Assembly: GCA_964291315.2 (NCBI GenBank)
Contig: OZ219753.1
Location: 2,720,001-2,784,000, forward strand
Reading direction: 5' to 3'
Origin: Candidatus Poribacteria bacterium
GTDB taxonomy: Bacteria; Poribacteria; WGA-4E; WGA-3G
Length of the DNA stretch: 64,000 nt
Shown here: positions 1,792 through 14,263 of the stretch, piece by piece
Position numbering within the stretch: position 1 is the first letter of the stretch
How the letters are laid out: each line of letters begins with the position of its first letter
Position numbers and translations under genes: made by a program
The notes under the pieces: model-generated
The model's input: only the letters and a program-made list of their open reading frames with translations
What the model was told of the DNA's origin: nothing
Database searches by the model: none

Positions 1792-3024
1792 TTACCTCCT
1801 TTCTTCGATCGTTTTGGCGAGGTACATGAGCTCCGATGTGCACCGGGCTTCTACCTCTGCCATCGCAACGCTGAGTTCTGCTTCCGAGCGAGCGTGTAGC
1901 TGGAGTCGTTCTTCGGTGATTTTGACATAGCGCTCGTTCTCTATATCGACGAATTCAATCTGTTCTTTGTTTTCGTTTACCAAAGCGTAACTTAAGAGAC
2001 CATTCTGTGAGGATTCTTCATCTGCCGGTCCTTCGAAGCAATCTTTTATCGCTAGCCCGTTGAAATTTTTGTAGAGCGCCCGAGCCGGAAGTTTATCAGG
2101 CAACAGACACACCGGCTGCGATGCTGTGTCTGGAATAGATTTTTCGGAATTTGTAAGCGTTTCTGGATTTTGAATTGTTTCGGTTGTTTCCTTACGACTC
2201 AATTCTCCGGGAGGAGATAAGGCATGCTGCGCAGAGATTTCCGTTGCGGATTCAGTATCCTCATTTCTTTCGCGTTTATTATTTACGCTAGTTTCTGAAA
2301 GGATAGGAATCTGTTGTGATGGATCAGGTTCTGAATCTTCGTTTTCCAATACGTCCGAAAGAACCTCCTTGACCCCGTCACGCCAGTCGGTAATTATTTC
2401 CTGTTCCTCGACTAGCACGCGCAGCGTTTCGATCCCGATAGCCTGAATCATTGGGTGAAACGCGAGTATCTTAGGCGGTGCCACCTCAAAAAGGGAGCGG
2501 TTAACATAAGCTGCTTCGGCGAGATTTCGCTTGCCAGTTAGCTTGAGCCGGGTTTCACAGGCAGTGAGTGCTTGGCACAAGCGTCGCATAAATTCGGGTG
2601 TAACTAGGTGCGGGAGCACCTTTACCTGGAAGCTTTCACCTGTCTGTTCCGGTTCTGGCTTTGAAATGAATTGCCCGATGATTGCTGAGTCTTCGTCCAA
2701 CACCTTTGTTTCGGGAACTAGGTTTTCATCAATTGATGGATCTGTCGGAGCATCTGAACCGTCTATGTCCTGAGCGCCGAGTAATTCAATTACCTGCGTG
2801 TACATCTGTTCAGGATCGAAAAGGACTCCTTCAAACTCAGGCTCGAGCAGCAATTCTCGACTCAGTGAGATGCAAGCATGTAAATGCTCTTCCTCCGATT
2901 TTTCGTAAGGAAGTCTACGTTGCTTTTCAACAGCAGTCCGCTTTTGTCTAGATTTTTTGTTCCGATTTCGCTTTTCACGTTTCCGTGCCACATTCGCGGA
3001 ACGGGTTCTCTTTTTTTTAGCCAT
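1792..3024 (-). CDS. Hypothetical protein with very basic N-terminus and acidic linkers
   Basis: 410-aa ORF with its own consensus promoter at 3126-3154; no family recognised. Confidence 0.75.
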   Translation of the reverse strand: MAKKKRTRSANVARKREKRNRNKKSRQKRTAVEKQRRLPYEKSEEEHLHACISLSRELLLEPEFEGVLFDPEQMYTQVIELLGAQDIDGSDAPTDPSIDENLVPETKVLDEDSAIIGQFISKPEPEQTGESFQVKVLPHLVTPEFMRRLCQALTACETRLKLTGKRNLAEAAYVNRSLFEVAPPKILAFHPMIQAIGIETLRVLVEEQEIITDWRDGVKEVLSDVLENEDSEPDPSQQIPILSETSVNNKRERNEDTESATEISAQHALSPPGELSRKETTETIQNPETLTNSEKSIPDTASQPVCLLPDKLPARALYKNFNGLAIKDCFEGPADEESSQNGLLSYALVNENKEQIEFVDIENERYVKITEERLQLHARSEAELSVAMAEVEARCTSELMYLAKTIEERR

Positions 3025-3125
3025 AGTAATGTATTTTCGCTATTACTAACGTAGTTATGTTCTAACGAATAGATGTTCCGTATTCCAAACAGCATGCAGT
3101 ATCAAATTTGACACACTGTTTTTTA

Positions 3126-3154
3126 AGTATATACCAACATATCTTCCTTGTCAA
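3126..3154 (-). promoter_or_regulatory. Sigma70-type promoter for 3024(-) gene
   Basis: TTGACA-17-TATACT on minus strand. Confidence 0.7.
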
Positions 3155-3329
3155 GTCTAAATTTATGGGTGTTTGCAGTTATTTACAGAAACCTGAAGTT
3201 TCCATCCTTGTGGTGTTAGGTTAACACTCGTTGTACTTGGTATCTTCTGTGTGTCTATTTTCACAATAAGCAGTTTAGTAGAACGCGTTTAGTCCGGGCG
3301 ATTGATTTTGTGTCAGGTTCAAATAAAAC

Positions 3330-3358
3330 TTGACATTATGCATTATTTGCTATAAAAT
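3330..3358 (+). promoter_or_regulatory. Sigma70-type promoter for GrpE-like/Hsp70 operon
   Basis: TTGACA-17-TAAAAT; about 260-nt leader follows; no CIRCE seen. Confidence 0.7.
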
Positions 3359-3626
3359 AGTGTGATTTTAAAAAAAATTGGGGGAGGCCAAAAAGATCGG
3401 TAACGCCGTTGTCCGAAAGAAAATGAAAGGGTTGATCTGGCTTATACCCACGGTTTTTGCTTATTCAGAGATGAACCACATGTTTATCAAGGCAGCGTTA
3501 TTGTATGGACAATGGCCGAATCGCGGTTTATTCTATAAGAATTAACACGGATCCCTAAGAACTAGGTGGTTGTGATATAAACTTAATCTCTAAATCCTGT
3601 CTTTTTGGACAGAGGAGGTAATTGCT

Positions 3627-4412
3627 TTGAACTCGGAATTTACAGAACAGCAACGGCAAGGGTTGGAATCGATGGAACAATTGCTGCCGAAGCTGGTATC
3701 AATGGAGCAAGAAATGTCTGCTTTGCGTGAGCTGTTTACAAAGCAGCTCGCCCGCAACCAGCGGCATCAGCAGATGTTCGACGCGGTCTATAAAGAAATG
3801 AAAGCGTATAAGGATGACAGATTCCGTGAAATATTTCACAAACCTGTTATCAATAACTTAATTCGACTCTACGATAACTTTAAGGAGGTAGAATCACAAC
3901 TGCGGGACCTCAAAGAGGTGTCCGGAGCTGATGGATCAGAGGTTAACATCGGTGACCTCATCGTATCTGTTTTTAACGATAGGCCCGAAAAAGAGCAGAA
4001 GAAACTGCTTAAGCAGGTTAAGTCTGCAAGGTCTGTTAAAAGTTTAGCAGAAAGACTGCAATCCATTCAGGAAAACTCTAAAGAGGTTCAACCAAAGTCT
4101 CAGGTGGGCCTGTCTCAATTTCAGAAGAATTTGGAAAACGTCCGTGTTCAATTGGAAGAGGTGTTATGTCGCATGGAGGTTACCCCTTATACCGAGCATC
4201 CAGAGAGACTTAATATGGAAATGCACCAAACCGTTGACACGATAGAGACCGATGACCCTGATAAGGATGAAGTCGTCGTTGAGATACGTAAGTCTGGATT
4301 CAAGTGGCGTGAACAGATATTTCGCCTAGAAGAGGTGATAATCTACCGCTATAAATCCGCTACAGGGGAATCGTCAAAAACAGTTGACGAAAAGTCAACA
4401 AAAGGAGAATAA
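3627..4412 (+). CDS. grpE: GrpE-like nucleotide exchange factor (divergent, with internal insertion)
   Basis: N-terminal coiled coil; C-terminal beta region (PERLNMEMHQTV...VVVEIRKSGFKWREQIFRLEEVII) matches GrpE pattern; GAGGAGG RBS before TTG; adjacent to Hsp70. Confidence 0.75.
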   Translation: MNSEFTEQQRQGLESMEQLLPKLVSMEQEMSALRELFTKQLARNQRHQQMFDAVYKEMKAYKDDRFREIFHKPVINNLIRLYDNFKEVESQLRDLKEVSGADGSEVNIGDLIVSVFNDRPEKEQKKLLKQVKSARSVKSLAERLQSIQENSKEVQPKSQVGLSQFQKNLENVRVQLEEVLCRMEVTPYTEHPERLNMEMHQTVDTIETDDPDKDEVVVEIRKSGFKWREQIFRLEEVIIYRYKSATGESSKTVDEKSTKGE

Positions 4413-4416
4413 ACTG

Positions 4417-6042
4417 ATGGGTAAAGTTGTTGGTATCGATTTAGGCACGACCTTTTCTGCGATCGCACACGTTAACGACTATGCACAAGCAGAAATTGTC
4501 CCGAATAAGCAGAATGAGCGCACTACGCCCTCCGTGATACTATTTCAAGACGATAATGTTGTCGTTGGGAAAATAGCCAAGGCTCAGGCAAAGGCGATGC
4601 CCGAACAGATCGTCGAGTTCGTCAAACGCGAGATGGGGAAACAGAAGGGAGCCGGTGAAAACGAATTTTGCCGTGAGTTTAATGGCAAATCATATTCGGC
4701 TGAAGAACTCTCCGCACAGATTTTGCTAAAACTTAAACAGGATGCGGAGGCACATCTTGGCACAGAGATCACTGACGCTGTCATTACAGTCCCGGCCTAT
4801 TTCAAAGACGCGGAGCGGAGTGCCACACGACTCGCTGGGGAAATTGCCGGACTGAACGTCTTACAAGTTGTCAATGAACCGACCGCCGCCGCGCTCGCTT
4901 ACGGTCTTGATCTACAGAACAGCGGTCAGACCGTGTTCGTCTTTGACCTGGGTGGTGGAACGTTCGACGTAACGATCATGAAGGTCTCCGGTTCGGAGTT
5001 AAGAATGATTGCGACGGATGGAGACAGCCGCCTCGGTGGGAAGGACTGGGACGATGAAATAATTAAGTATGTTGCTGAGAAATTCGAAATAGAGCACGGT
5101 TCCAATCCCTTAGACGACAACTACACGTATCAAGATATCCAATCTGAAGCTATTCAAGCAAAGGAACATTTGACAGAACTTGAAACAACACGCATCGTTT
5201 TCAACTACGAAGGTAAGAGTAGTAATGTGGAGTTGACGCGTGAGAAGTTTGAGGAACTCACTGCAGATCTCCTTGGGAGGTGTAGGGCCACGTGTGAACA
5301 CGTTCTCTCAGAAGCCAAAATGACGTGGGAAGATATTAATACGGTGTTGTTGGTTGGTGGTTCCACCCGGATGCCGATGGTGCGAAAGATGATTGCTGAG
5401 ATCAGCGGTAAAGAAATTAACCCGACGGAGGTCAATCTAGATGAGGTGGTTGCACACGGGGCTGCTATCTATGGAACCCTCCGCCAGATTGAGGAGGTGA
5501 TAATTGACAAAACTTCTGAAACAGCCACGGAAGAAGATATTTCGGAAGCTGTCAAGGATAAGTTCATCAATGATTCTGACGAAACCGTAATAGCGGTGTT
5601 TGATCGCGCCACACATAACCTTGGATTGACTGTAAGCAAAACAGTCGATAAAAAAAGGAAGGTATACACTCATGTGATGATTCCCAAAATGACCCCCGTT
5701 CCATGTGAGATAACAAGAGATTCGTTTGGAACACTAGAGGACAATCAACAAGGTGTCTTAATCAATGTTTTTCAGGGACTCGAACATAACAAACTTATAG
5801 AGGAAATACCTGACTTTGAAAACCATAGAATAGGTAAAACCACCCTTAAACTACCGCCTAACTTACCGAAAGGAACTCCCATTAAAGTTACCTTTGAGTA
5901 TAACCGTGATCAAACGCTTGAGGTAACTGCGGAGGGACCTAATAATAGTAGCATAGATATAACGATTGATCGTAAGACCCTCAATAAAGAGCAAGTTACT
6001 GAAGCAACCACAAACCTCCAAGAAAATTTGAAGGTTAAATAG
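4417..6042 (+). CDS. Hsp70-family protein (DnaK paralogue lacking most of the helical lid)
   Basis: GIDLGTTFS, ITVPAYF, NEPTAAALAYG, FDLGGGTFDVT, LLVGGSTRMP motifs; AAGGAG RBS supports ATG 4417. Confidence 0.92.
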   Translation: MGKVVGIDLGTTFSAIAHVNDYAQAEIVPNKQNERTTPSVILFQDDNVVVGKIAKAQAKAMPEQIVEFVKREMGKQKGAGENEFCREFNGKSYSAEELSAQILLKLKQDAEAHLGTEITDAVITVPAYFKDAERSATRLAGEIAGLNVLQVVNEPTAAALAYGLDLQNSGQTVFVFDLGGGTFDVTIMKVSGSELRMIATDGDSRLGGKDWDDEIIKYVAEKFEIEHGSNPLDDNYTYQDIQSEAIQAKEHLTELETTRIVFNYEGKSSNVELTREKFEELTADLLGRCRATCEHVLSEAKMTWEDINTVLLVGGSTRMPMVRKMIAEISGKEINPTEVNLDEVVAHGAAIYGTLRQIEEVIIDKTSETATEEDISEAVKDKFINDSDETVIAVFDRATHNLGLTVSKTVDKKRKVYTHVMIPKMTPVPCEITRDSFGTLEDNQQGVLINVFQGLEHNKLIEEIPDFENHRIGKTTLKLPPNLPKGTPIKVTFEYNRDQTLEVTAEGPNNSSIDITIDRKTLNKEQVTEATTNLQENLKVK

Positions 6043-6140
6043 GGAAAAGCGTTGGTAACAGCTGCTGTGTCACAAGGTGAGGTTGTTGCCGCACCCTTAC
6101 CTTGTGACGCGCATCCCCCTAATTGCAAAAGGAGTAGTAG

Positions 6141-7229
6141 GTGTCTAAACGAGATGATTTTACCACTATCATTAAAACGTTGAAAAAAGCATTGCCTAGT
6201 ATTACCGATGACCAATATAAAAGGTTGGTCAGGCAAGGCATGCATGACTACGGACTCTCCCAGGATGAGGCAGAGCGGATCATCAAAAAAGAGGTAGGCC
6301 TGATTATTGGGAAAGTGGTAAATCATTTTCAGGAGTTAGGGCTCACAATTGATGACCTGAAAAACCTGAGTGAAGACGAAATCGAAAAACTTGTTCAGGC
6401 TAAGTATGATCTCCTTTATAAGCAGGCAAGAATTAGCGCCAATCCCAGGAATGCTGAGAAACAGGCAGCGTTGAATGCGGCAAGGGATACGCTACTTGAT
6501 CCACAGAGGCGGCAGGAACACATTCAACTCCTTGAGCGGCAGAAAACGTCTTCCAACACCGAGGATGGAAACTCTCAGAAACGCAGTAGCACAGACGTGA
6601 GAGCTATCTTCAAGTTCGGGAAGGTAGCGGCTATTTTAGCAATTCTTGCTTTTCTGCTCTTATTGGGACTTGGACTTGATAACATTATCAAAAATTCGAA
6701 AACACAACCCCACGCTACAGAATTCCAAGAAGGCAAGCCTGCAACCGTACTACGCGCACGTCGTACTGGGGCAGGCACAACGGGCTCGCCAGCAAAGCCT
6801 CAGATCGATCCCACAACGGTGGTGGCCGTTATTGAAACGGCAAAGGGCACTATTGAATTTGAATTTCTTGCAACTGAAGCACCCGAAACTTCCAAGAATT
6901 TCATTAAGAACGCCCAAGTCATGTATTATAAAGGCGAGAAGTTTAATCGCGCAGAAGAACTTCTCGTCCAAGCAGGATCGAATCTCGCCGCCGGAGACAC
7001 ACTTCCAATTGAGAACGGTTCGCAACAGATGTCGCGGGGCGTTGTCGCCCTAGCGAAAGAAGAAGGGGCGAGTGTCTCCTATGTGTCAGAATTCTTTATC
7101 TGTCGAGGCGATGTTATTCTTGACAGTGATTACACCATTTTCGGAAACGTCGTCAGCGGTATGGAGGTCGTTGACAGAATCACCGTTGGCGACGCAATTA
7201 TGAACATTACTATTCGAGAGAAAGAGTAA
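6141..7229 (+). CDS. Membrane-anchored protein: helical N-domain + degenerate J-like domain + TM + cyclophilin-type PPIase-like domain
   Basis: NHFQELGL...SEDEIEK...LNAARDTLLDPQRRQEH (J-fold pattern, no HPD); TM VAAILAILAFLLLLGLGL; APETSKNF, SEFFI, YTIFGNVVSGMEVVDRI cyclophilin motifs; AAGGAG RBS. Confidence 0.8.
   Translation: MSKRDDFTTIIKTLKKALPSITDDQYKRLVRQGMHDYGLSQDEAERIIKKEVGLIIGKVVNHFQELGLTIDDLKNLSEDEIEKLVQAKYDLLYKQARISANPRNAEKQAALNAARDTLLDPQRRQEHIQLLERQKTSSNTEDGNSQKRSSTDVRAIFKFGKVAAILAILAFLLLLGLGLDNIIKNSKTQPHATEFQEGKPATVLRARRTGAGTTGSPAKPQIDPTTVVAVIETAKGTIEFEFLATEAPETSKNFIKNAQVMYYKGEKFNRAEELLVQAGSNLAAGDTLPIENGSQQMSRGVVALAKEEGASVSYVSEFFICRGDVILDSDYTIFGNVVSGMEVVDRITVGDAIMNITIREKE
6246..6724 (+). 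repeat. Near-identical direct repeat, copy 1 (copy 2 at 8549-9027)
   Basis: About 480 bp, offset 2303; only two substitutions seen (V/A and A/T codons); preceding ~105 nt and RBS are homologous but more diverged. Confidence 0.9.
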
Positions 7230-7240
7230 TGGATATCGGC

Positions 7241-7288
7241 TAGCAGTTAGCAGATAGCGGTTGGCAAATCAGAAACTGCTAACTGCTA
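7241..7288. repeat. Heptamer-repeat inverted repeat (possible terminator or processing hairpin)
   Basis: TAGCAGTTAGCAG ... CTGCTAACTGCTA, perfect 13-bp stem built from TAGCAG(T/A) units. Confidence 0.65.
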
Positions 7289-7361
7289 AGACCGATTTGT
7301 GAAGTTTATGTTTTTTCGAACTCTCGTTTAATTGTATATTTTGTTATAAATGGAGGCATAT

Positions 7362-7568
7362 ATGTCTTTAACTGTTACTCGAACGGCGCGTCCAAGCCCC
7401 GTCTGGCAGGAAAGTTACGTGCGCGTCAAAAAAGGGCAACGTCTCATTATTGATGCAGAGGGCGCGTGGTCCCCGGATCTGCAAAATCGGACCGGATGGT
7501 GCGGCGGAGATGGGGTGCCTAAGACCCCAGGCTCCAACGGTTATCTATTACCCGGCACAAATAGTTGA
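7362..7568 (+). pseudogene. Truncated LecA/PA-IL-like beta-sandwich N-terminus joined out of frame to an FGE repeat
   Basis: GGAGG RBS; WQESYVRVKKGQRLIIDAEGAWS...CGGDG...YLLPG; stop codon overlaps the first bases of the FGE linker repeat. Confidence 0.5.
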
Positions 7569-8379
7569 TGAAAACCCTCAAAAATGGAGTAGCAGAGACA
7601 CGCAAGCCCTCGACACCGCAGTCTCAGGGATGGTATTGATCCCATCGGGCACCTTTCGGATGGGCAGCACCACAGGCGATGCCAATGAACGCCCTGTTCA
7701 CACTGTCACTTTAGATGCGTTTTATATGGATACACACGAAGTAACAAACGCAGAATACGTCAAATTTCTCAATGCTATGGGCAGACATGCAAATGCCGGC
7801 CGTCCATGGCTGGCTATCTGGAAGAGTGGTGTGCGCATTGAGCGTTTAGGTGGAACGTATCGCCCAAAGGCGGGGTATGCGGATCATCCTGTTGTTCATG
7901 TGAGCTGGTATGGTGCGATGGCTTATGCTGCCTGGGTAGGCAAGCGTCTGCCGACCGAGGCGGAGTGGGAGTATGCCGCACGCGGTGGGTTAGCAGGGAA
8001 GGAATATCCTTGGGACGACACGATTGACAGCACGCGGGCAAACTACAACGATAATGTCGGTAGTACGACAGCAGTTGGCAGTTATGATGCGAACGGGTAT
8101 GGTCTGTATGATATGGCGGGGAATGTCTGGGAATGGTGTCTGGATGCGTACAACAAACACTTCTATACCATTTCATCTGCCTGTAATCCGCTATCGGGGC
8201 CGTCCAGGATTGATTGGTTATTGAGAAACTATACAAATGTTGAGTCTAATCGCGTCTTGCGTGGCGGATCTTGGTACAGTACAGCGCAAAAGGTACGAGT
8301 TGCCTATCGCTACAAATCTTCTCCTGCGCGCACGAACGTCAGTGTCGGTTTTCGTTGTGCAAGTTCTGTATCCGCTTGA
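7567..8379 (+). CDS. Single FGE-sulfatase (SUMF1-like, CLec-fold) domain with no proper start
   Basis: MVLIPSGTFRMG, RLPTEAEWEYAARGG, GLYDMAGNVWEWC, RVLRGGSW...GFRC; homology to the repeat unit begins at 7567. Confidence 0.75.
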   Translation, partial: DENPQKWSSRDTQALDTAVSGMVLIPSGTFRMGSTTGDANERPVHTVTLDAFYMDTHEVTNAEYVKFLNAMGRHANAGRPWLAIWKSGVRIERLGGTYRPKAGYADHPVVHVSWYGAMAYAAWVGKRLPTEAEWEYAARGGLAGKEYPWDDTIDSTRANYNDNVGSTTAVGSYDANGYGLYDMAGNVWEWCLDAYNKHFYTISSACNPLSGPSRIDWLLRNYTNVESNRVLRGGSWYSTAQKVRVAYRYKSSPARTNVSVGFRCASSVSA

Positions 8380-8443
8380 ACCTTTACTTTACTCCCTGTG
8401 GCACAGATGGACAGTTTATGCTACAGATTATAAGGAGTAGCAC

Positions 8444-11400
8444 ATGTCTAAACGAGATGATTTTACCATTTTTATTCAGGGATGGAAAAAAGCTGCCCCT
8501 AATATTACTGTTGACCAATACAAAGGGTTAATCAGGCAAGGCATACACGACTACGGACTCTCCCAGGATGAGGCAGAGCGGATCATCAAAAAAGAGGTAG
8601 GCCTGATTATTGGGAAAGCGGTAAATCATTTTCAGGAGTTAGGGCTCACAATTGATGACCTGAAAAACCTGAGTGAAGACGAAATCGAAAAACTTGTTCA
8701 GGCTAAGTATGATCTCCTTTATAAGCAGGCAAGAATTAGCGCCAATCCCAGGAATGCTGAGAAACAGGCAGCGTTGAATGCGGCAAGGGATACGCTACTT
8801 GATCCACAGAGGCGGCAGGAACACATTCAACTCCTTGAGCGGCAGAAAACGTCTTCCAACACCGAGGATGGAAACTCTCAGAAACGCAGTAGCACAGACG
8901 TGAGAGCTATCTTCAAGTTCGGGAAGGTAGCGGCTATTTTAGCAATTCTTGCTTTTCTGCTCTTATTGGGACTTGGACTTGATAACATTATCAAAAATTC
9001 GAAAACACAACCCCACACTACAGAATTTGTTGATGATTCGCCGAAGGGGTCTTCGGGCACCGCAGCAATCTCAGAGAGGTCTGCATCCTCTACACAGCAG
9101 GAAACTTCTTCCAGCACGGACGATGGAAACCGACAGAAACGCAATAGCAGAGACGCGCTAACCCCCGAACCCCCAGTCTCAGGGATGGTATTGATCCCAT
9201 CGGGCACCTTTCGGATGGGCAGCACCACAGGTGATGCCAATGAACGCCCTGTTCACACTGTTACTGTAGATGCGTTTTATATGGATACGCACGAAGTAAC
9301 AAACGCACAATACGCCGATTTTCTTAATGCTATGGGCAGACATGCAGATGCGGGTCATACGTGGTTGGCTCTCGGTAGCCGTGGTGCACACATTGAGCGT
9401 TTAGGTGGAACGTATCGCCCGAAGGCGGGGTATGCGGATCATCCTGTTGTTCGTGTGAGTTGGTATGGTGCGATGGCATATGCGAAGTGGGCAGGCAAGC
9501 GCCTGCCTACCGAGGCGGAGTGGGAATACGCCGCACGCGGCGGCGAGTCGGGTCTGAAGTATCCCTGGGGAAACACGATTGACAGCACACGGGCAAACTA
9601 CGACAGAAATGTCGGTGAGACGACAAGAGTAGGGCATTATGGTGCAAATAGCTATGGTCTGTATGACATGGTCGGAAATGTCTATGAATGGTGCTTAGAT
9701 GCATATAATAGAGACTCCTATGCCAGTTATCCTGCCCGTAATCCGCTATCGGGTGCGTTTAGTATTCATTGGCTATCAGATAATTATACAGAGATTAAGT
9801 CTAGACGCGTCTTGCGTGGCGGATCTTGGCTCAGTGAAGCTCAGTACGTGCGGGTCGCCAACCGCTTTGACTATACGCCGACGAGCACGTCCCTCTTCAC
9901 AGGCTTTCGTTGCGCAAGGTCTGCATCCTCTACACAACAGGAAACCCCTCCCAGCCCGGACGATGAAAACCCTCAAAAATGGAGTAGCAGAGACGCGCAA
10001 CCCTCCGACCCATCAGTCTCAGGGATGGTATTGATCCCATCGGGCACCTTTCGGATGGGCAGCACCACAGGTGATGCCAATGAACGCCCTGTTCACACTG
10101 TTACTGTAGATGCGTTTTATATGGATACACACGAAGTAACAAACGCACAATACGCGGACTTTCTTAATGCTATGGGTAGACATGCAGATGCGGGTCATAC
10201 GTGGTTGGCTCTCGGTAGCCGTGGTGCACACATTGAGCGTTTAGGCGGAACGTATCGTGTGAAAGCAGGGTATGCGGATCATCCTGTTGTTCGTGTGAGT
10301 TGGTATGGTGCAATGGCATATGCGAAGTGGGCAGGCAAGCGTCTGCCGACGGAGGCGGAGTGGGAGTATGCTGCGCGCGGCGGCAAGTCGGGTCTGAAGT
10401 ATCCGTGGGGAAACACGATTGACAGCTGGCATGCGAACTACGACAGAAATATCGGTAAGACAACAAGAGTAGGGCATTATGGTGCAAATAGCTATGGTCT
10501 GTATGACATGGTCGGAAATGTCTACGAATGGTGCTTAGATGCATATAATAGAGACTCCTATGCTAGTTCTCCTGCTCACAATCCAGGTACGTTTAGTATT
10601 CAGTGGCTGTTAGATAATTATACAGAGATTAAGTCTGACCGCGTCTTGCGTGGCGGCTCCTGGGCCGGTTCAGCATGGCTCGTGCGTGTTGCCAATCGTG
10701 GCAGCTTTTCGCCTTGGATAACGGGCGCCGGCCTCGGTTTCCGTTGTGTAAGGTCTGTATCTCTTACGCGGCAGGAAACACCTCCCAGCCCGGATGATGA
10801 AAACTCTCAAAAATGGAGTAGCAGAGACGTGCTAACCCCCGCCCCCCCAGTCTCAGATATGGTATTGATCCCATCGGGCACCTTCCAGATGGGCAGCACC
10901 ACAGGTGATGCCAATGAACGTCCTGTTCACACTGTTACTGTAGATGCGTTTTATATGGATACGCACGAAGTGACGAACGCAGAATACGCCGCGTTCCTCA
11001 ATGCGAAGGGAAAACACACAGACGCTGGCAAGACTTGGTTGTTTATCGGTAGCAGTGGTGCACGCATTGAGCGTTTAGGTGGAACGTATCGCCCAAAGAC
11101 AGGGTATGCGGATCATCCTGTTGTTTATGTGAGCTGGTATGGTGCGATGGCGTATGCGAAGTGGAAGGGCAAGCGGCTGCCGACGGAAGCAGAGTGGGAA
11201 TACGCTGCTCGCGGCGGATTAGCAGGCAAACTTTATCCCTGGGGCGACACCGTAGACTCCAGCCGTGCGAACTATGATTGGAACGTCGGTAGGACAACGG
11301 CAGGCGGTGCGTATGCTGCGAACGATTACGGTCTGTATGATATGGTCGGAAATGTTTCGGAGTGGTGTCTGGATGCGTATGATAGCGCCTTCTATACCAG

Positions 11401-13282
11401 TTATCCTGCCCATAATCCGCTATCGGGTGCGTCTAGTATCCAGTGGCTGTTAGATAATTATACAGAGATTAAGTCTGACCGCGTCTTGCGTGGCGGCTCC
11501 TGGGCCAGTTTAGCAGGGCTTGTACGGGTTGCCAACCGCAGTAACTTTTCGCCTGGGGTAACGAGCTCCGTCTTCGGTTTCCGTTGTGTAAAGCCTGTAT
11601 CTCTTACGCGGCAGGAAACCCCTCCCAGCCCGGACGATGAAAACCCTCAAAAATGGAGTAGCAGAGACGCGCAACCCTTCGACACCGCAGTCTCAGGGAT
11701 GGTATTGATCCCATCGGGCACCTTTCGGATGGGCAGCACCACAGGTGATGCGGATGAACGCCCTGTTCACACTGTCACTTTAGATGCGTTTTATATGGAT
11801 ACATACGAAGTGACGAACGCAGAATACGCCGATTTTCTTAATGCTATGGGCAGACATGCCGATGCGGGTCATACGTGGTTAAATATGGATAGCGGCGGTG
11901 TACGCATCGAGCGTTTGGGCGGAACGTATCGTGTGAAAGCGGGGTATGCGGATCATCCTGTTGTTCATGTGAGTTGGTATGGTGCAATGGCATATGCGAA
12001 GTGGAAGGGCAAGCGCCTGCCTACCGAGGCGGAGTGGGAGTATGCAGCACGCGGCGGCAAGTCGGGTCTGAAGTATCCCTGGGGAAACACGATTGACAGC
12101 ACGCATGCAAACTACGGCAGAAATGTCGGTAAGACAACAAGAGTAGGGCATTATGGTGCAAATAGCTATGGTCTGTATGACATGGTCGGAAATGTCTATG
12201 AATGGTGCTTAGATGCATATAATAGAGACTCCTATGCTAGTTCTCCTGCTCACAATCCTGGAGCGTCTAGTATTCATTGGCTATTAGATAATTATGCAAA
12301 GGTTGAGTCTCAACGCGTCTTGCGCGGCGGATCTTGGCTCAGTGAAGCTCAGTACGTGCGGGTCGCCTACCGCAACTACTATACGCCGACGAGCACGTCC
12401 TTCTTCACAGGCTTTCGTTGTGCAAGGTCTGCATCCTCTACACAACAGGAAACCTCTTCCAACACGGACAATAGAAACTATCAGAAACGTAGCAGCAGAG
12501 ACGCGCAACCCTCCGACCCATCAGTCTCAGGGATGGTATTGATCCCATCGGGCACCTTTCGGATGGGCAGCACCACAGGTGATGCGGATGAAAGCCCTAT
12601 TCACACTGTCACTTTAGATGCGTTTTATATGGATACACACGAAGTAACAAACGCAGAATACGCGGATTTTCTTAATGCTATGGGCAGACATGCAGATGCA
12701 GGCCATACATGGCTGGCTATCTGGAAGAGTGGTGTGCGCATTGAGCCTTTAGATAGAACGTATCGTGTGAAAGCGGGGTATGCGGATCATCCTGTTGTTC
12801 ATGTGAGTTGGTATGGTGCGATGGCGTATGCTGCGTGGGCGGGCAAGCGCCTGCCTACCGAGGCGGAGTGGGAATATGCCGCACGCGGCGGCAAGTCGGG
12901 TCTGAAGTATCCGTGGGGAAACACGATTGACAGCACGCAGGCGAGATACGCTAGAAAGACCCGTAGTCCGACAGCGGTAGGGCGTTATGCTGCGAACGGG
13001 TATGGTCTGTATGATATGGTCGGAAATGTCTGGGAGTGGTGTCTGGATGCGTATGACAAAAACTTCTATACCATTTCACCTACTTCTAATCCGCTATCGG
13101 GCGCGTCTAGTATTCAGTGGCTGTTAGATAATTATGCAGAGATTAAGTCTAGACGCGTCTTGCGTGGCGGCTCCTGGGAAAATACAGCGGGAAACGTGCG
13201 GGCCGCCTTCCGCTTTTATGATACGCCGACGAGCACGTTCCCCGTCACCGGTTTCCGTTGTGCAAGGTCTGTATCGCCTTGA
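8444..13282 (+). CDS. Membrane-anchored protein: helical N-domain + degenerate J-like domain + TM + five tandem FGE-sulfatase/CLec domains; putative DGR target
   Basis: 1612 aa; five MVLIPSG...GFRC units; catalytic FGE cysteines absent after RGGSW. Confidence 0.88.
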   Translation: MSKRDDFTIFIQGWKKAAPNITVDQYKGLIRQGIHDYGLSQDEAERIIKKEVGLIIGKAVNHFQELGLTIDDLKNLSEDEIEKLVQAKYDLLYKQARISANPRNAEKQAALNAARDTLLDPQRRQEHIQLLERQKTSSNTEDGNSQKRSSTDVRAIFKFGKVAAILAILAFLLLLGLGLDNIIKNSKTQPHTTEFVDDSPKGSSGTAAISERSASSTQQETSSSTDDGNRQKRNSRDALTPEPPVSGMVLIPSGTFRMGSTTGDANERPVHTVTVDAFYMDTHEVTNAQYADFLNAMGRHADAGHTWLALGSRGAHIERLGGTYRPKAGYADHPVVRVSWYGAMAYAKWAGKRLPTEAEWEYAARGGESGLKYPWGNTIDSTRANYDRNVGETTRVGHYGANSYGLYDMVGNVYEWCLDAYNRDSYASYPARNPLSGAFSIHWLSDNYTEIKSRRVLRGGSWLSEAQYVRVANRFDYTPTSTSLFTGFRCARSASSTQQETPPSPDDENPQKWSSRDAQPSDPSVSGMVLIPSGTFRMGSTTGDANERPVHTVTVDAFYMDTHEVTNAQYADFLNAMGRHADAGHTWLALGSRGAHIERLGGTYRVKAGYADHPVVRVSWYGAMAYAKWAGKRLPTEAEWEYAARGGKSGLKYPWGNTIDSWHANYDRNIGKTTRVGHYGANSYGLYDMVGNVYEWCLDAYNRDSYASSPAHNPGTFSIQWLLDNYTEIKSDRVLRGGSWAGSAWLVRVANRGSFSPWITGAGLGFRCVRSVSLTRQETPPSPDDENSQKWSSRDVLTPAPPVSDMVLIPSGTFQMGSTTGDANERPVHTVTVDAFYMDTHEVTNAEYAAFLNAKGKHTDAGKTWLFIGSSGARIERLGGTYRPKTGYADHPVVYVSWYGAMAYAKWKGKRLPTEAEWEYAARGGLAGKLYPWGDTVDSSRANYDWNVGRTTAGGAYAANDYGLYDMVGNVSEWCLDAYDSAFYTSYPAHNPLSGASSIQWLLDNYTEIKSDRVLRGGSWASLAGLVRVANRSNFSPGVTSSVFGFRCVKPVSLTRQETPPSPDDENPQKWSSRDAQPFDTAVSGMVLIPSGTFRMGSTTGDADERPVHTVTLDAFYMDTYEVTNAEYADFLNAMGRHADAGHTWLNMDSGGVRIERLGGTYRVKAGYADHPVVHVSWYGAMAYAKWKGKRLPTEAEWEYAARGGKSGLKYPWGNTIDSTHANYGRNVGKTTRVGHYGANSYGLYDMVGNVYEWCLDAYNRDSYASSPAHNPGASSIHWLLDNYAKVESQRVLRGGSWLSEAQYVRVAYRNYYTPTSTSFFTGFRCARSASSTQQETSSNTDNRNYQKRSSRDAQPSDPSVSGMVLIPSGTFRMGSTTGDADESPIHTVTLDAFYMDTHEVTNAEYADFLNAMGRHADAGHTWLAIWKSGVRIEPLDRTYRVKAGYADHPVVHVSWYGAMAYAAWAGKRLPTEAEWEYAARGGKSGLKYPWGNTIDSTQARYARKTRSPTAVGRYAANGYGLYDMVGNVWEWCLDAYDKNFYTISPTSNPLSGASSIQWLLDNYAEIKSRRVLRGGSWENTAGNVRAAFRFYDTPTSTFPVTGFRCARSVSP
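9185..13282 (+). repeat. Five tandem intragenic repeats of 834-840 bp
   Basis: Unit starts (ATG of MVLIPSG) at 9185, 10025, 10859, 11699, 12533; further homologues at 7630 and 51135. Confidence 0.95.
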
Positions 13283-13329
13283 TTCTGAATCGCAGATGAA
13301 ATCGACGAAAGGCGCGGAAAATACAATCC

Positions 13330-13383
13330 GGGGCGTGATGGCAGGTAGCCTTCTACTGACGACTATCACCCCCCTTTATTTAT
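13330..13383 (+). terminator. Long hairpin with T-rich tail; homologous to 51965-52016
   Basis: GGGGCGTGATGG...CTATCACCCCCC then TTTATTTAT. Confidence 0.6.
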
Positions 13384-13699
13384 CGCTGGCTCTCTATCTT
13401 TAGAATGGAACCTCCTATTCCCGGCCACACATTATACCCTCCCCCCGGCAAAACAGCCCTCATGAAACCCTACTGAGACGCATTAAATACTGAAACGGAC
13501 AAAACAGAGCATATCTATAGATGTCATGATCCAACTAAGACGCTGCGCATGTTTAAATTTTTTCCAGAAAACAGTTCGCGAGGCTCAGAGATCCCTCGGA
13601 CAGAAGCTCTGAATGCTCCCTCGTTAGTTTTTTCTATTGCACCTGTTCACACAATATGCTAAATTAAAATGATATTTGAATCCAGAGGAGGACTATTAA

Positions 13700-14263
13700 A
13701 TGCGTCGAAATTACATAATCGTTTGCACGATGGGGGTACTTGTAGCCGCCGCCATCGCTCTGAATATCAACAACGTCGAAAGTCAAAGCGATATGATACA
13801 ACGGGGAAAATACCTCGTCGACACAGTCGGAGCATGCGGGCATTGTCACACGCCCCGTGCTGGTGCTGAATATGACATGGAGATGTACCTTGCTGGGCAT
13901 CCCGCGAATGCTTCATATCCACGCTACAACTTTAGCATGATGCAACAAGGAATTTTTCTTCTGACATCCCCGCAAATGAGTGCGTTTTCCGGTCCGTTCG
14001 GAACCACTTTCGCGTCAAACCTTACGCCCGACAATCAAACAGGATTAGGCGAATGGACGGAGGAGATGTTCATTAACGCAATGCGCACGGGACATCATCA
14101 AGGCGACACGAGCAATCGGAAGATCTTCCCGCCAATGCCGATAAAGCATTATGCTGAAATGAATGAGAGTGATCTCAAGGCAATTTGGGCGTATCTCAGG
14201 AGTGTTAAGCCAGTTAAAAATGAGGTGAATCCGCCGTTGAATCAGCGAGGGCGTCCATACTAA
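13700..14263 (+). CDS. Monoheme c-type cytochrome
   Basis: N-terminal signal/TM; RGKYLV..GACGHCHTPR; ASNLTPD..TGLGEWT; PPMP axial Met; GAGGAGG RBS. Confidence 0.88.
   Translation: MRRNYIIVCTMGVLVAAAIALNINNVESQSDMIQRGKYLVDTVGACGHCHTPRAGAEYDMEMYLAGHPANASYPRYNFSMMQQGIFLLTSPQMSAFSGPFGTTFASNLTPDNQTGLGEWTEEMFINAMRTGHHQGDTSNRKIFPPMPIKHYAEMNESDLKAIWAYLRSVKPVKNEVNPPLNQRGRPY

Follow-up and report, generated by a model that had tools for sequence, protein, structure and literature searches.

Why does a bacterium with a housekeeping DnaK also encode a second Hsp70, placed directly behind a GrpE-like gene and ahead of two genes that have an N-terminal module in common and differ in their C-terminal domains? 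The locus belongs to a sponge-associated Candidatus Poribacteria genome (GCA_964291315.2, contig OZ219753.1). All coordinates given here are those of the window, the whole stretch of 64,000 nt that was analyzed (positions 2,720,001 to 2,784,000 of the contig, forward strand). An earlier note on this DNA had read the operon as a set of membrane receptors that couple recognition of an external ligand to a private Hsp70 switch. Our analysis leads us to favor, tentatively and at slightly less than even confidence, an accessory Hsp70 machine in which J-like adaptors link a dedicated ATPase to variable binding domains. A sensing or conflict system is a reasonable inference.

Layout of the operon

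Comparison of ORFs, Pfam matches, and DNA confirmed the gene order noticed previously: a promoter-like site, a GrpE-like gene, a lid-less Hsp70 gene, and then two genes with a common N-terminal module and one transmembrane (TM) helix. All five ORFs are on the + strand and all are open. The features are as follows:

3330 to 3358, +: candidate sigma-70-like promoter, TTGACA-17-TAAAAT (11/12 match), ~270 nt upstream of the first gene
3627 to 4412, +: GrpE-like protein, 261 aa (Pfam GrpE, 36.8 bits)
4417 to 6042, +: accessory Hsp70 paralogue, 541 aa (Pfam HSP70), with nucleotide-binding domain (NBD), acidic insert, linker, and beta substrate-binding subdomain (SBD-beta)
6141 to 6725, +: 5′ part of the interrupted gene, with helical subdomain, J-like domain, linker, and TM helix (alignments, profiles, AlphaFold2 model)
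6141 to 7229, +: ORF reading module-TM-cyclophilin, 362 aa (Pro_isomerase, 78.5 bits at residues 230–351)
6726 to 7563, +: 838-bp insertion, cyclophilin part plus 334 bp of 3′ flank (near-identical donor in the genome; contig lacking the insert)
7450 to 8379, +: ORF of 309 aa with a TTG start inside the insertion (FGE-sulfatase, 234.7 bits)
7564 to 8379, +: stranded 3′ remainder of the interrupted gene, a linker and a single non-catalytic FGE domain (Pfam FGE-sulfatase), within ORF 7450 to 8379
8444 to 13282, +: intact module-TM-5xFGE protein, 1612 aa (Pfam FGE-sulfatase, 1125.5 bits, five stretches)
8444 to 8848, +: module of the 1612-aa protein
about 8927 to 8983, +: TM helix of the 1612-aa protein
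9176 to 9931, 10013 to 10762, 10850 to 11602, 11687 to 12439, and 12521 to 13276, +: the five FGE repeats of the 1612-aa protein

The promoter-like site is the best + strand site of the region; as promoter-type sites show no excess there (14 in total vs 15.1 in shuffles), its candidacy rests on position and match quality. The leader upstream of the GrpE-like gene matched no Rfam family. The Hsp70 frame is open from 4384 to 6042, and its likely start is the ATG at 4417, which gives the 541-aa length of the window's own Hsp70 database entry (P0002). The 309-aa ORF at 7450 to 8379 had gone unlisted in the earlier note.

Metabolic genes lie on either side of the operon (PfkB, nitroreductase, cytochrome c, GFO/IDH/MocA, PhyH, a TIM-barrel protein, and an RraA-like protein), and the window contains no recognizable effector. 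As had been noted, CIRCE and a canonical dnaJ are missing: no CIRCE element was found in the window at up to three mismatches, and no Pfam DnaJ gene, all four of the genome's DnaJ matches lying elsewhere.

The Hsp70 is a paralogue of the housekeeping DnaK

Although the operon Hsp70 scores 403.8 bits against Pfam HSP70 (PF00012; cut-off 20.6), it falls below both NCBIfam DnaK equivalogs (409.1 vs 648 bits; 402.2 vs 822.55 bits). It is not the only DnaK of the genome, which has a separate housekeeping copy scoring 895 bits against 392 bits for the operon protein. The two are 40% identical (198/495), and their alignment stops about 25 residues past SBD-beta, as the operon protein has no α-helical lid. 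In a quick IQ-TREE search, a branch of length 1.94 with 100% support separated 7 DnaK rows from 50 Hsp70 rows of the system, and the window's Hsp70 sat in a 24-row clade (support 97%). The ATPase motifs DLGTT, K70, NEPTAA, and DLGGGTFD are invariant in 44 paralogues, and we predict that the operon Hsp70 is ATPase-competent. Assignment to the HscC type was rejected because the protein is closer to its own DnaK than to Escherichia coli HscC (31% identity), and because a GrpE-like gene is conserved directly upstream.

The GrpE-like protein matches Pfam GrpE (PF01025) at residues 123–239 with 36.8 bits (cut-off 25.8). As it lies far below the NCBIfam GrpE equivalog (21.3 bits vs a cut-off of 176), we regard it as a divergent member of the family. 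An alignment with 13 relatives shows that it carries a private insertion of ~60 residues. The gene is patchily distributed: 46 of the 176 genomes in the phylum have it (no match in the other 130), as do 10 of 64 in its own genus. The Hsp70 paralogue of ~400 bits was present in all three examined genomes that have the GrpE-like gene and absent from two same-genus genomes that lack it.

The common module contains a J fold without HPD

The module consists of a helical subdomain (aa 1–57) and a J-like domain (aa 58–135), and is followed by a TM helix at residues 162–180 (Kyte-Doolittle 2.59) that is preceded by RAIFKFGK. The two N-termini are homologous, the proteins being 91% identical over 199 residues. 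At the DNA level, the stretches at about 6240 to 6725 and 8543 to 9028 are all but identical, with divergence in the first ~100 coding bases.

Pfam DnaJ (PF00226) did not match the module even at E ≤ 10. A profile-profile comparison with 20 canonical J domains did (probability 89%, E 2.3e-6, 67 columns), and in the AlphaFold2 model of the module (mean pLDDT 82.3) the J-like region adopts the four-helix J fold. Residues 58–135 of the model matched J domains in a structure search with Z scores of 9.3 to 6.4, for example 7aoi_BK (Z 9.0, rmsd 1.4 Å, 68 residues), and the top 12 Foldseek rows were all J domains, with target-normalized TM-scores of up to 0.79. The HPD motif is absent, as proposed before: the loop between helices II and III reads ISANPRN, and the HPD position is NPRN in the window and mostly RPRPDG or RPRADG in relatives. 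Canonical J domains need HPD to stimulate Hsp70. Without it, the module may bind Hsp70 without activating it, or may not bind at all. In having a J fold without HPD, the module is like Tim16/Pam16 (chain 2guz_B vs the model: Z 6.0, rmsd 3.7 Å, 60 residues). Tim16 does not activate Hsp70 but regulates a true J-protein; in contrast to that case, the operon here encodes no partner with HPD.

The predicted complex of the operon Hsp70 with module residues 1–140 scored 0.47, and the best of three controls 0.00; of 80 solved complexes, 58 pass the same mark, as do 2 of 110 mismatched pairs, with passing scores of ≤0.60 seen in only 7 of the 80 solved complexes and in both passing mismatches. The runs agreed in at least 86% of contacts, with a partner pLDDT of at least 78. 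Because a J-domain-DnaK complex has already been solved, the pass may show likeness only. Thus, of the J domain proposed previously to bind this Hsp70, the fold holds up in the model, and the complex prediction faintly suggests that binding may occur.

The FGE domains are non-catalytic and variable

Among solved structures, the closest sequences to the FGE domains are true FGEs (E 2e-26) and SUMF2 (E 5e-19), as found with a mixed profile. The cysteine pair after the GGS motif is catalytic in FGE. With the pattern taken from solved FGE 6s07, none of the 127 FGE domains with an RGGS motif, including all six in the window, has the CxxxxC pair. The domains are therefore non-catalytic, as had been supposed, and formylglycine-generating enzyme was rejected as an identity for them despite their FGE-sulfatase matches. 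The five repeats of the 1612-aa protein are 72–75% identical to the domain of the 7450 ORF, with differences clustered between RGGSW and GFRC. Across 115 FGE domains, sequence entropy peaks in this same interval and in three other loops. The genome has 65 FGE-domain matches, and only the two FGE proteins of the operon carry the module.

FGE genes with ~75–80% DNA identity flank the two reverse-transcriptase (RT) loci of this genome. Identity as variable proteins of a diversity-generating retroelement (DGR) was rejected for the operon's FGE proteins: no RT was found in 77 system loci, and differences between the window's variable segments and the genome's template-like repeat are not mainly at template adenines (9–16 mismatches at A, 18–27 at other bases).

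A recent insertion created the cyclophilin fusion

The 838-bp insertion is 97.97% identical, without gaps, to a sequence near 3.12 Mb of the same genome (G000:C4). It comprises the mature-protein part of a lipoprotein cyclophilin gene, whose donor copy has a signal peptide and lipobox, and 334 bp of that gene's 3′ flank. By frame arithmetic, the insertion begins just past the donor's lipobox Cys-Ala and is in frame with the module, so that ORF 6141 to 7229 reads module-TM-cyclophilin. A contig from another run (X2) joins 6725 directly to 7564, giving the uninterrupted module-TM-FGE form, and no module-cyclophilin fusion was found in the other loci examined. The fusion is a strain-specific chimera, formed when a recent insertion split a module-TM-FGE gene, and the cyclophilin ectodomain that had been read as part of a receptor is thus not a feature of the system. 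That the cyclophilin part is an inserted duplicate had been overlooked.

Conservation across related loci

The gene linkage is conserved. The GrpE-like gene directly precedes the Hsp70 gene in 56 of 57 related loci, nearly all from Candidatus Poribacteria; in the remaining one (L101) the two are in one aberrant ORF. Tandem module genes, one to six or more per locus and mostly module-FGE, are carried by 47 of the 57 loci (172 ORFs). In all 20 fetched neighborhoods, the order is GrpE-like, Hsp70, module genes; this set shares loci with the 57, and with both drawn from related genomes the two are not independent. Few proteins belong to the module family: a search of 1.84 billion proteins gave 70 representatives at E ≤ 0.001, and among 71 members the module is fused to FGE (19), ankyrin (9), and WD40 (3) domains. 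Conflict-type neighbors include Hsp70-vWA fusions (17 of the 57 loci) and caspase-PEGA-FGE proteins (5 of the 57). Several related arrays contain fragments of module or FGE ORFs (e.g., L071, L074, L088, L093, and L102).

Membrane anchoring is the exception. Only 2 of the 172 module ORFs have a TM helix in the 60 residues that follow the module. Of the 152 ORFs with a full module, 148 have no TM helix at all and are small (about 420 aa), and most relatives are predicted from sequence to be soluble cytoplasmic module-FGE or module-WD40 proteins. Some module members have TM segments, or many, and one locus (L039) encodes a J-like-TM-13x ankyrin protein. Within the arrays of six loci, mean pairwise identity is 0.50–0.60 for the module and 0.50–0.56 for the FGE domain; the module is no more conserved than its partner, a poor fit to a simple picture of constant adaptor and variable sensor.

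In distant triads, from Myxococcota and other metagenome-assembled genomes, the gene after the short Hsp70 was checked for DnaJ. One had a true Pfam DnaJ domain (L110; 31.1 bits, cut-off 27.8), another a sub-threshold match (L109; 25.0 bits), and in a third (L113) no DnaJ domain was found.

Comparison with known systems

GAP1-N2/DO-GTPase systems with HSP70, GrpE, and FNIII-DnaJ proteins have been read as conflict systems (Kaur, Burroughs, Iyer, and Aravind, eLife 2020, PMC7159879), and in some a second HSP70 lacks the peptide-binding domain (PMC7159879). Like these, our locus combines a dedicated HSP70 with its own GrpE and a J protein fused to a variable, non-enzymatic binding module. Unlike them, it has no GTPase or GAP1 gene, and its J-like domain lacks HPD and escapes Pfam DnaJ. 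The binding module is FGE, WD40, or ankyrin here and FNIII there; the adaptors here stand in tandem arrays, and the hosts are Poribacteria rather than actinobacteria and firmicutes. Identity with the DO-GTPase/GAP1-N2 systems was rejected, as Pfam, searched without a GAP1 model, placed the five operon ORFs and seven of eight flanking ORFs in other families. Relatives share this gene set, for which there is no earlier description, although the supplements of Kaur et al. might list similar loci.

Three kinds of bacterial Hsp70 are recognized: DnaK, HscA, and HscC (Mayer 2021, PMC8215388). The operon resembles E. coli HscC with DjlC/DjlB in pairing a specialized, shortened Hsp70 (550–580 aa in the HscC type) with adjacently encoded, membrane-associated J-proteins of its own. 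According to that review, HscC works with no J-proteins but its own and without GrpE, an HPE triad is retained in DjlB and DjlC, and the HscC lid is shortened but kept (PMC8215388); here, a GrpE-like protein is encoded, the triad is gone, and the lid is absent.

FGE (FGS) domains serve as hypervariable binders, often DGR-linked, in vWA-MoxR systems (PMC7159879). The operon's adaptors are like DGR variable proteins of the FGE/C-type-lectin type and “antigen sensor” conflict proteins (PMC10907252; Kaur et al. 2020) in their non-catalytic FGE fold with variability near the C-terminus, and related FGE genes do adjoin RT loci in this genome; unlike them, the system loci have no RT or template repeat, and the differences are not adenine-specific. 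DnaK-like domains without lid helices are also fused to EACC1-protease defense modules (bioRxiv 2025, PMC12642450), where FGE domains fused to proteases are given as sensors. In contrast, the Hsp70 here is free-standing, with GrpE-like and J-like partners, and the window has no protease. A search of PADLOC-DB 2.0 matched the Hsp70 to PDC-M61B only (E 4.6e-4, 17 bits) and gave no hit for the other five proteins.

Proposed mechanism and alternatives

In the machine that we favor, the constant core would be a GrpE-like exchange factor and a lid-less Hsp70, apparently restricted to Candidatus Poribacteria lineages. The variable part would be one to many adaptors, each a module joined to a non-enzymatic binding domain. 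In most cases this is one FGE/C-type-lectin-fold domain; in some, WD40, ankyrin, or membrane segments take its place. The J-like domain may dock the adaptor on the dedicated Hsp70, the C-terminal domain would pick what reaches the chaperone or what regulates it, and the GrpE-like protein would reset the Hsp70 cycle. Rather than serving general folding under heat shock, the machine would most likely recognize proteins or ligands that vary and are probably foreign, like the NTPase-centered conflict systems with FGS domains (Kaur et al. 2020), which it resembles. The adaptors of this genome are atypical in having one TM anchor each, so their FGE domains should face outward.

A more specific version is Hsp70-powered, innate-immune-like surveillance: arrays of adaptors, each with a different variable FGE or repeat sensor, would catch foreign phage or competitor proteins, and the coupled lid-less Hsp70/GrpE cycle would unfold or sequester the target or license vWA/caspase effectors. 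We consider this possible, though on balance unlikely; the lack of a recognizable effector in the window and the metabolic flanks are points against the favored reading as a whole. Somewhat less likely still, in our judgment, is that the module is a recruitment tag by which the operon Hsp70 and GrpE-like protein fold the tagged FGE, WD40, and ankyrin proteins, maintain them in an export-competent state, or place them in the membrane, the role of the system then being whatever the FGE proteins do, such as binding sponge-matrix or host molecules. The tag is on the same polypeptide as large, repeat-rich domains, members with TM segments exist, the signal anchor of the window's members leaves as many as about 1400 residues to be moved across the membrane, FGE proteins make up a large protein class in the genome, and Hsp70 guides proteins bound for export (Mayer 2021, PMC8215388). 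However, as just two of those FGE proteins have the module, FGE domains generally fold without it; the small soluble relatives should need no private chaperone; and patchy presence in close relatives together with vWA/caspase neighbors better fits an accessory conflict or sensing role.

The N-in/C-out receptor of the earlier note, signaling an external ligand through a cytoplasmic J-like domain to the private Hsp70, now appears improbable. In both module proteins of the window a strong TM helix does come immediately behind the module, its N-terminal side marked by KFGK, the J-like domain must be cytoplasmic to meet Hsp70, and the anchored ankyrin relative has the same plan. The near-absence of TM helices in the family nevertheless argues that outside-in signaling is not its mechanism; a single-pass anchor offers no evident way to pass on ligand binding, the cyclophilin “ectodomain” is a recent insertion, and the arrangement may be a local derivative of the system. 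Both features, the “membrane receptor” and the “cyclophilin,” are peculiar to this genome. With one of its two adaptor genes broken, the locus may be decaying, and a remnant without current function would also account for the fragmentary ORFs in related arrays and for a window Hsp70 and GrpE-like protein that are on long branches or have private insertions. Yet the five ORFs are open, the Hsp70 catalytic motifs are kept, the 1612-aa gene is intact, and the insertion is in frame from just after the Cys-Ala, and we regard decay as decidedly improbable. Least probable of all is sulfatase handling, in which the FGE domains, like pFGE/SUMF2, would bind the motif of unfolded sulfatases and pass them to Hsp70 to be matured or exported. 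Sulfatases abound in Poribacteria, and true FGEs and SUMF2 are the nearest solved sequences, but WD40 or ankyrin takes the FGE position in the same arrays, the system is absent from most genomes of the phylum by the GrpE-like query, and variability is highest at the putative binding surface, where a conserved CxPxR motif would lead one to expect little.

Implications

The 838-bp insertion is a clean natural case of domain shuffling, in which a lipoprotein signal peptide was replaced by a J-like module and membrane anchor. The operon Hsp70 adds a further coherent clade, with its own GrpE-like protein and private HPD-less J-like partners. If these partners still act on Hsp70, they would represent an alternative coupling of J-type adaptors to Hsp70 and a simple system for how adaptor choice directs a chaperone. 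If the surveillance reading is true, STAND, MoxR, and GTPase switches would gain in Hsp70 an immune NTPase counterpart of a new class, and the membrane-anchored 5xFGE form would extend surveillance to the cell surface. Should the FGE arrays recognize invaders, Hsp70 would join the NTPase switches of prokaryotic immunity, here in sponge symbionts.

Organization of the operon

A candidate promoter in the window stands ahead of five ORFs on the forward strand. The first two encode a GrpE-like protein and an Hsp70. Two of the others share an N-terminal module, consisting of helical subdomain A (residues 1-57) and a J-like domain without the HPD motif (residues 58-135), and formylglycine-generating-enzyme-type (FGE) domains are also encoded. 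The features are as follows:

3330-3358, +, sigma-70-like promoter candidate (TTGACA-17-TAAAAT), ahead of the five ORFs
3627-4412, +, GrpE-like protein (Pfam GrpE, 36.8 bits against a cut-off of 25.8)
4417-6042, +, Hsp70 (Pfam, 403.8 bits)
6141-7229, +, ORF with the shared module, one transmembrane (TM) helix and a cyclophilin domain (Pfam)
7450-8379, +, ORF with a lone FGE-sulfatase domain (Pfam)
8444-13282, +, ORF in which the same module and TM helix are followed by five FGE-sulfatase domains (Pfam)

Metabolic genes lie on the operon's flanks. An RNA element such as a riboswitch was rejected for the 270-nt leader, as Rfam gave no match at E≤1 across 2900-13800, which covers leader and operon. 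A divergent 410-aa ORF (1792-3024, -) has no Pfam family and is preceded by a second promoter-like site (3154-3126, -; 11-of-12 match). The GrpE-like protein carries an insertion of ~60 residues rich in Lys, Glu and Ser (residues ~95-160) that is absent from 13 aligned relatives.

A private Hsp70 and GrpE-like pair

The genome encodes a separate housekeeping DnaK, which scored 895 bits versus 392 bits for the operon Hsp70 and is 40% identical to it (198/495). A heat-shock operon was rejected on the basis of this separate DnaK, the absence of any CIRCE element in the window, and canonical dnaJ genes elsewhere in the genome. This agrees with the earlier note, which set the operon apart from heat-shock folding; the operon Hsp70 is not the only DnaK of the genome.

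Aligned with the genome's own DnaK, the operon Hsp70 ends ~25 residues past the beta-sandwich substrate-binding domain and therefore has no helical lid; an acidic insert lies ahead of the interdomain linker. It falls under the NCBIfam equivalog cut-offs for both DnaK and HscA, and membership of HscC was ruled out by an identity of only 31% to the E. coli protein. Its ATPase motifs are invariant across 44 close paralogues (62-72% identity). A quick maximum-likelihood tree, for which 57 of 80 rows were kept and every second Poribacteria short Hsp70 was left out, split seven housekeeping DnaKs from 50 system Hsp70s by a branch of length 1.94 with full support, and placed the window Hsp70 within a 24-row clade of short Poribacteria paralogues (97% support). 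The phylum was represented by 176 genomes, of which 46 have the GrpE-like gene; within the window's own genus it was found in 10 of 64. Two same-genus genomes without it also have no Hsp70 paralogue, and three genomes with it have one. By these comparisons, the pair is private and accessory.

The module resembles a J domain

No Pfam DnaJ domain was found in the module even at E≤10, and only 70 module relatives were recovered among 1.84 billion representatives scanned. Profile-profile comparison matched the second half of the module to a profile of 20 canonical J domains, drawn from the window's genome and related genomes (probability 89%, E 2.3e-6, 67 columns). The AlphaFold2 model of a module protein (mean pLDDT 82.3; blocks 1-140 mostly >85) shows three short helices (residues 3-52), then a J-type helix arrangement (residues 62-142). 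All of rows 1-12 from Foldseek were J domains, with TM by target of at most 0.79 and weak E-values (0.14-1), and a structure search independent of Foldseek returned J domains at Z 9.3-6.4. Structure 7aoi_BK superimposed on model residues 59-134 at Z 9.0 (rmsd 1.4 Å, 68 residues); HscB (1fpo) matched at Z 7.9, and Tim16, which has no HPD, at Z 6.0. Subdomain A matched only unrelated three-helix pieces at Z~5. The ESM Atlas provided leads only (best scores 0.83; a DnaJ cluster at rank 7, 0.78), and a profile built from an untrimmed alignment and compared with PDB sequences was uninformative on the module, since some members contributed C-terminal FGE and Hsp70-like parts that dominated it. By model and profile, a small helical prefix precedes a J-like domain in the module, in agreement with the J-like domain lacking HPD that the earlier note proposed.

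Where HPD would stand, the window has ISANPRN and most relatives have RPRPDG or RPRADG. In E. coli, R167 of DnaK pairs with the HPD aspartate of DnaJ. On the Hsp70 side, the corresponding arginine of the genome's own DnaK (...VERIINEPT...) is a glutamine in the operon copy (...VLQVVNEPT...), and this glutamine is at least 90% conserved in the Hsp70 paralogues.

Complex prediction weakly favors the proposed binding of the J-like domain to this Hsp70: the pair scored 0.47, with the best control at 0.00, and runs shared at least 86% of contacts with a partner pLDDT of at least 78. Of 80 solved complexes, 58 reached the mark, as did 2 of 110 mismatched pairs, though scores of 0.60 or below came from only seven of those 80 and from both passing mismatches. 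The pass may also be explained by likeness to a solved J-DnaK complex.

Linkage and architecture in relatives

The order GrpE-like, Hsp70, module genes was found in 20 of 20 neighborhoods from related genomes. In a second set of 57 loci from named species genomes, which overlaps the first, Hsp70 lies directly 3' of the GrpE-like gene in 56; the exception, L101, has both in a single aberrant ORF. In this 660-aa ORF (G130:C22), a single frame with one internal TAA gives matches to Hsp70, the module and the GrpE-like protein; it may be a rearranged or decayed copy. Module ORFs, 172 in total, occur in 47 of the 57 loci, the other ten being L057, which is cut by a contig end, and nine distant loci. 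The linkage is thus conserved, and the earlier note's central claim, that pseudo-J partners go with a dedicated GrpE-like and Hsp70 pair, holds.

Loci typically have a tandem run of four to six genes, or more, of ~420 aa, each encoding the module and one FGE domain, interspersed with module-WD40 genes of ~460 aa. No TM helix is predicted in 148 of 152 full-module ORFs, and only 2 of the 172 module ORFs have one within 60 residues past the module. One FGE domain is present in 131 ORFs, two in a single ORF, and five in none. A second subtype has only the J-like half, after which come other regions, multi-TM segments or 13 ankyrin repeats; an Hsp70-vWA fusion (17/57 loci) and sometimes a caspase-PEGA-FGE protein (5/57) go with it. 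Immediately ahead of the GrpE-like gene, some Poribacteria loci encode a caspase (Peptidase_C14)-PEGA-FGE protein that has one TM helix: L037:10980-12842 (-), and also L058, L060, L061, L095 and L100.

The nine distant loci (L104, L106-L113) come from metagenome-assembled genomes (MAGs) mostly labeled Myxococcota, Deltaproteobacteria, Proteobacteria or "Enterobacteriaceae/Enterobacterales"; several of these organism labels look doubtful. Eight of the nine combine Hsp70-vWA, a short GrpE-like protein and a short (~560-aa) Hsp70, and L106, which begins at a contig end, has no visible upstream Hsp70. The gene after the short Hsp70 was scanned in three: it has a true Pfam DnaJ domain in L110 (31.1 bits, cut-off 27.8), a sub-threshold match in L109 (25.0 bits) and no match in L113. 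In at least one distant version, a J-protein therefore occupies the slot that in Poribacteria is held by the adaptors, which join the module to a C-terminal FGE, WD40 or ankyrin (Ank) domain.

The cyclophilin domain is a recent insertion

Positions 6726-7563 (838 bp) are 97.97% identical, without gaps, to a site ~393 kb away on the same contig, where the sequence covers the mature portion of a 200-aa cyclophilin lipoprotein together with 334 bp 3' of the gene. The segment begins right after the donor's lipobox Cys-Ala (donor gene L157:1732-2334, -) and lies between codons F (6723-6725) and V (7564-7566). Since it is in frame, the module and TM anchor exactly replace the donor signal peptide. 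Without the insertion, the flanks join into a single module-TM-FGE frame, open over 466 codons, in which TEF/VDE... parallels TEF/VDD... of the second gene; the 7450 ORF is thus the orphaned 3' half of a split gene. A contig from public sequencing run X2 joins 6725 to 7564, omitting exactly the 838 bases. In run X1, which may be the source sample, a 111-nt contig spans the 5' junction with 0 mismatches, and no contig among the matches listed bridges the 3' junction (7563/7564). The target (ACAGAATTC/GTTGATGA) and donor end (CACAAATA/) are alike over a short stretch. No module-cyclophilin fusion was found in the other loci examined.

The cyclophilin "ectodomain" is therefore a recent insertion and, with the rarity of TM helices in full-module relatives, this means that the membrane receptor mechanism proposed in the earlier note is not general. 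The two module copies are near-identical from ~6240 to the insertion point, with the first ~100 bases diverged, which points to recent gene conversion or duplication.

FGE domains as putative binding modules

Among 139 FGE domains with a C-terminal part, 12 lacked the RGGS motif, and none of the remaining 127 had the catalytic-type cysteine pair of solved FGEs. Sulfatase maturation by canonical FGE chemistry was rejected on this basis, and the domains are non-catalytic, as anticipated. Variability across 115 of them peaks in four surface stretches, with its maximum between the invariant RGGSW and GFRC, the same stretch in which the window's six copies differ most. These sequence patterns suggest that the FGE domains are binding modules. 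Poribacteria are rich in sulfatases. The 4.4-Mb genome has 65 FGE-sulfatase domain matches, many in 3-repeat proteins. An additional FGE ORF in the window (51129-51893; open frame 645 aa) has no module and is located well away from the operon.

Two reverse transcriptase (RT) loci of the genome are flanked by FGE genes with 75-80% DNA identity to the window's repeats. These are two copies of an element resembling a diversity-generating retroelement (DGR), 96% identical over 2.5 kb:

G000:C4:493866-497507 (L114), DGR-like element, copy 1
G000:C3:30628-34269 (L115), DGR-like element, copy 2

In each, the FGE-domain gene precedes an Avd-sized ORF of 118 aa, a 368-aa RT and finally a 130-bp repeat that is 84.6% identical to the FGE gene end. 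Of the 20 repeat mismatches, only 9 coincide with adenines in the presumed template, and the DGR signature is thus not clean. The window's FGE domains are not supported as DGR targets, with no adenine bias among their copies and no RT in 77 system loci.

Relation to known systems and proposed working

Private sets of Hsp70 and co-chaperones are a known kind, which includes HscA/HscB, HscC/DjlC and the HSP70, GrpE and DnaJ-FNIII theme attached to DO-GTPases that is among the NTPase-centered conflict systems of Kaur et al. 2020 (PMC7159879). That paper also treats FGS (FGE) domains as variable binders, and according to a 2025 preprint (PMC12642450), DnaK-like domains without a lid occur in protease-effector defense modules, as do FGE sensors. 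The Poribacteria operon is likewise a private set, but it falls outside DnaK, HscC, canonical J-proteins, active FGEs, DGR targets and the systems of PADLOC, which gave no convincing match to a known defense system. A search of main texts found no Hsp70 system reported in Poribacteria. It likewise found no account of a GrpE / Hsp70 / J-like-FGE operon, so this form is without a description in the literature found; supplements, above all that of Kaur et al., may list relevant neighborhoods.

The vocabulary of FGE, WD40, Ank, vWA and caspase domains, the tandem arrays with fragments and the patchiness resemble the conflict systems of Kaur et al. Counting against a defense reading, the window has no recognizable effector or defense neighbor, conservation within arrays is no higher in the module than in the FGE domain, and the HPD motif is absent. 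In the main rival reading, the module is a tag for self-delivery, by which the adaptors themselves would be folded or exported.

The Poribacteria loci hold a conserved triad of a GrpE-like protein, a lid-less Hsp70 and J-fold adaptors with non-enzymatic binding domains, and this triad is accessory and patchily distributed. In the probable mechanism, the J-like domain would dock on the operon Hsp70, the C-terminal domain would pick a target or sense a ligand, and the GrpE-like protein would recycle the Hsp70 ATPase.
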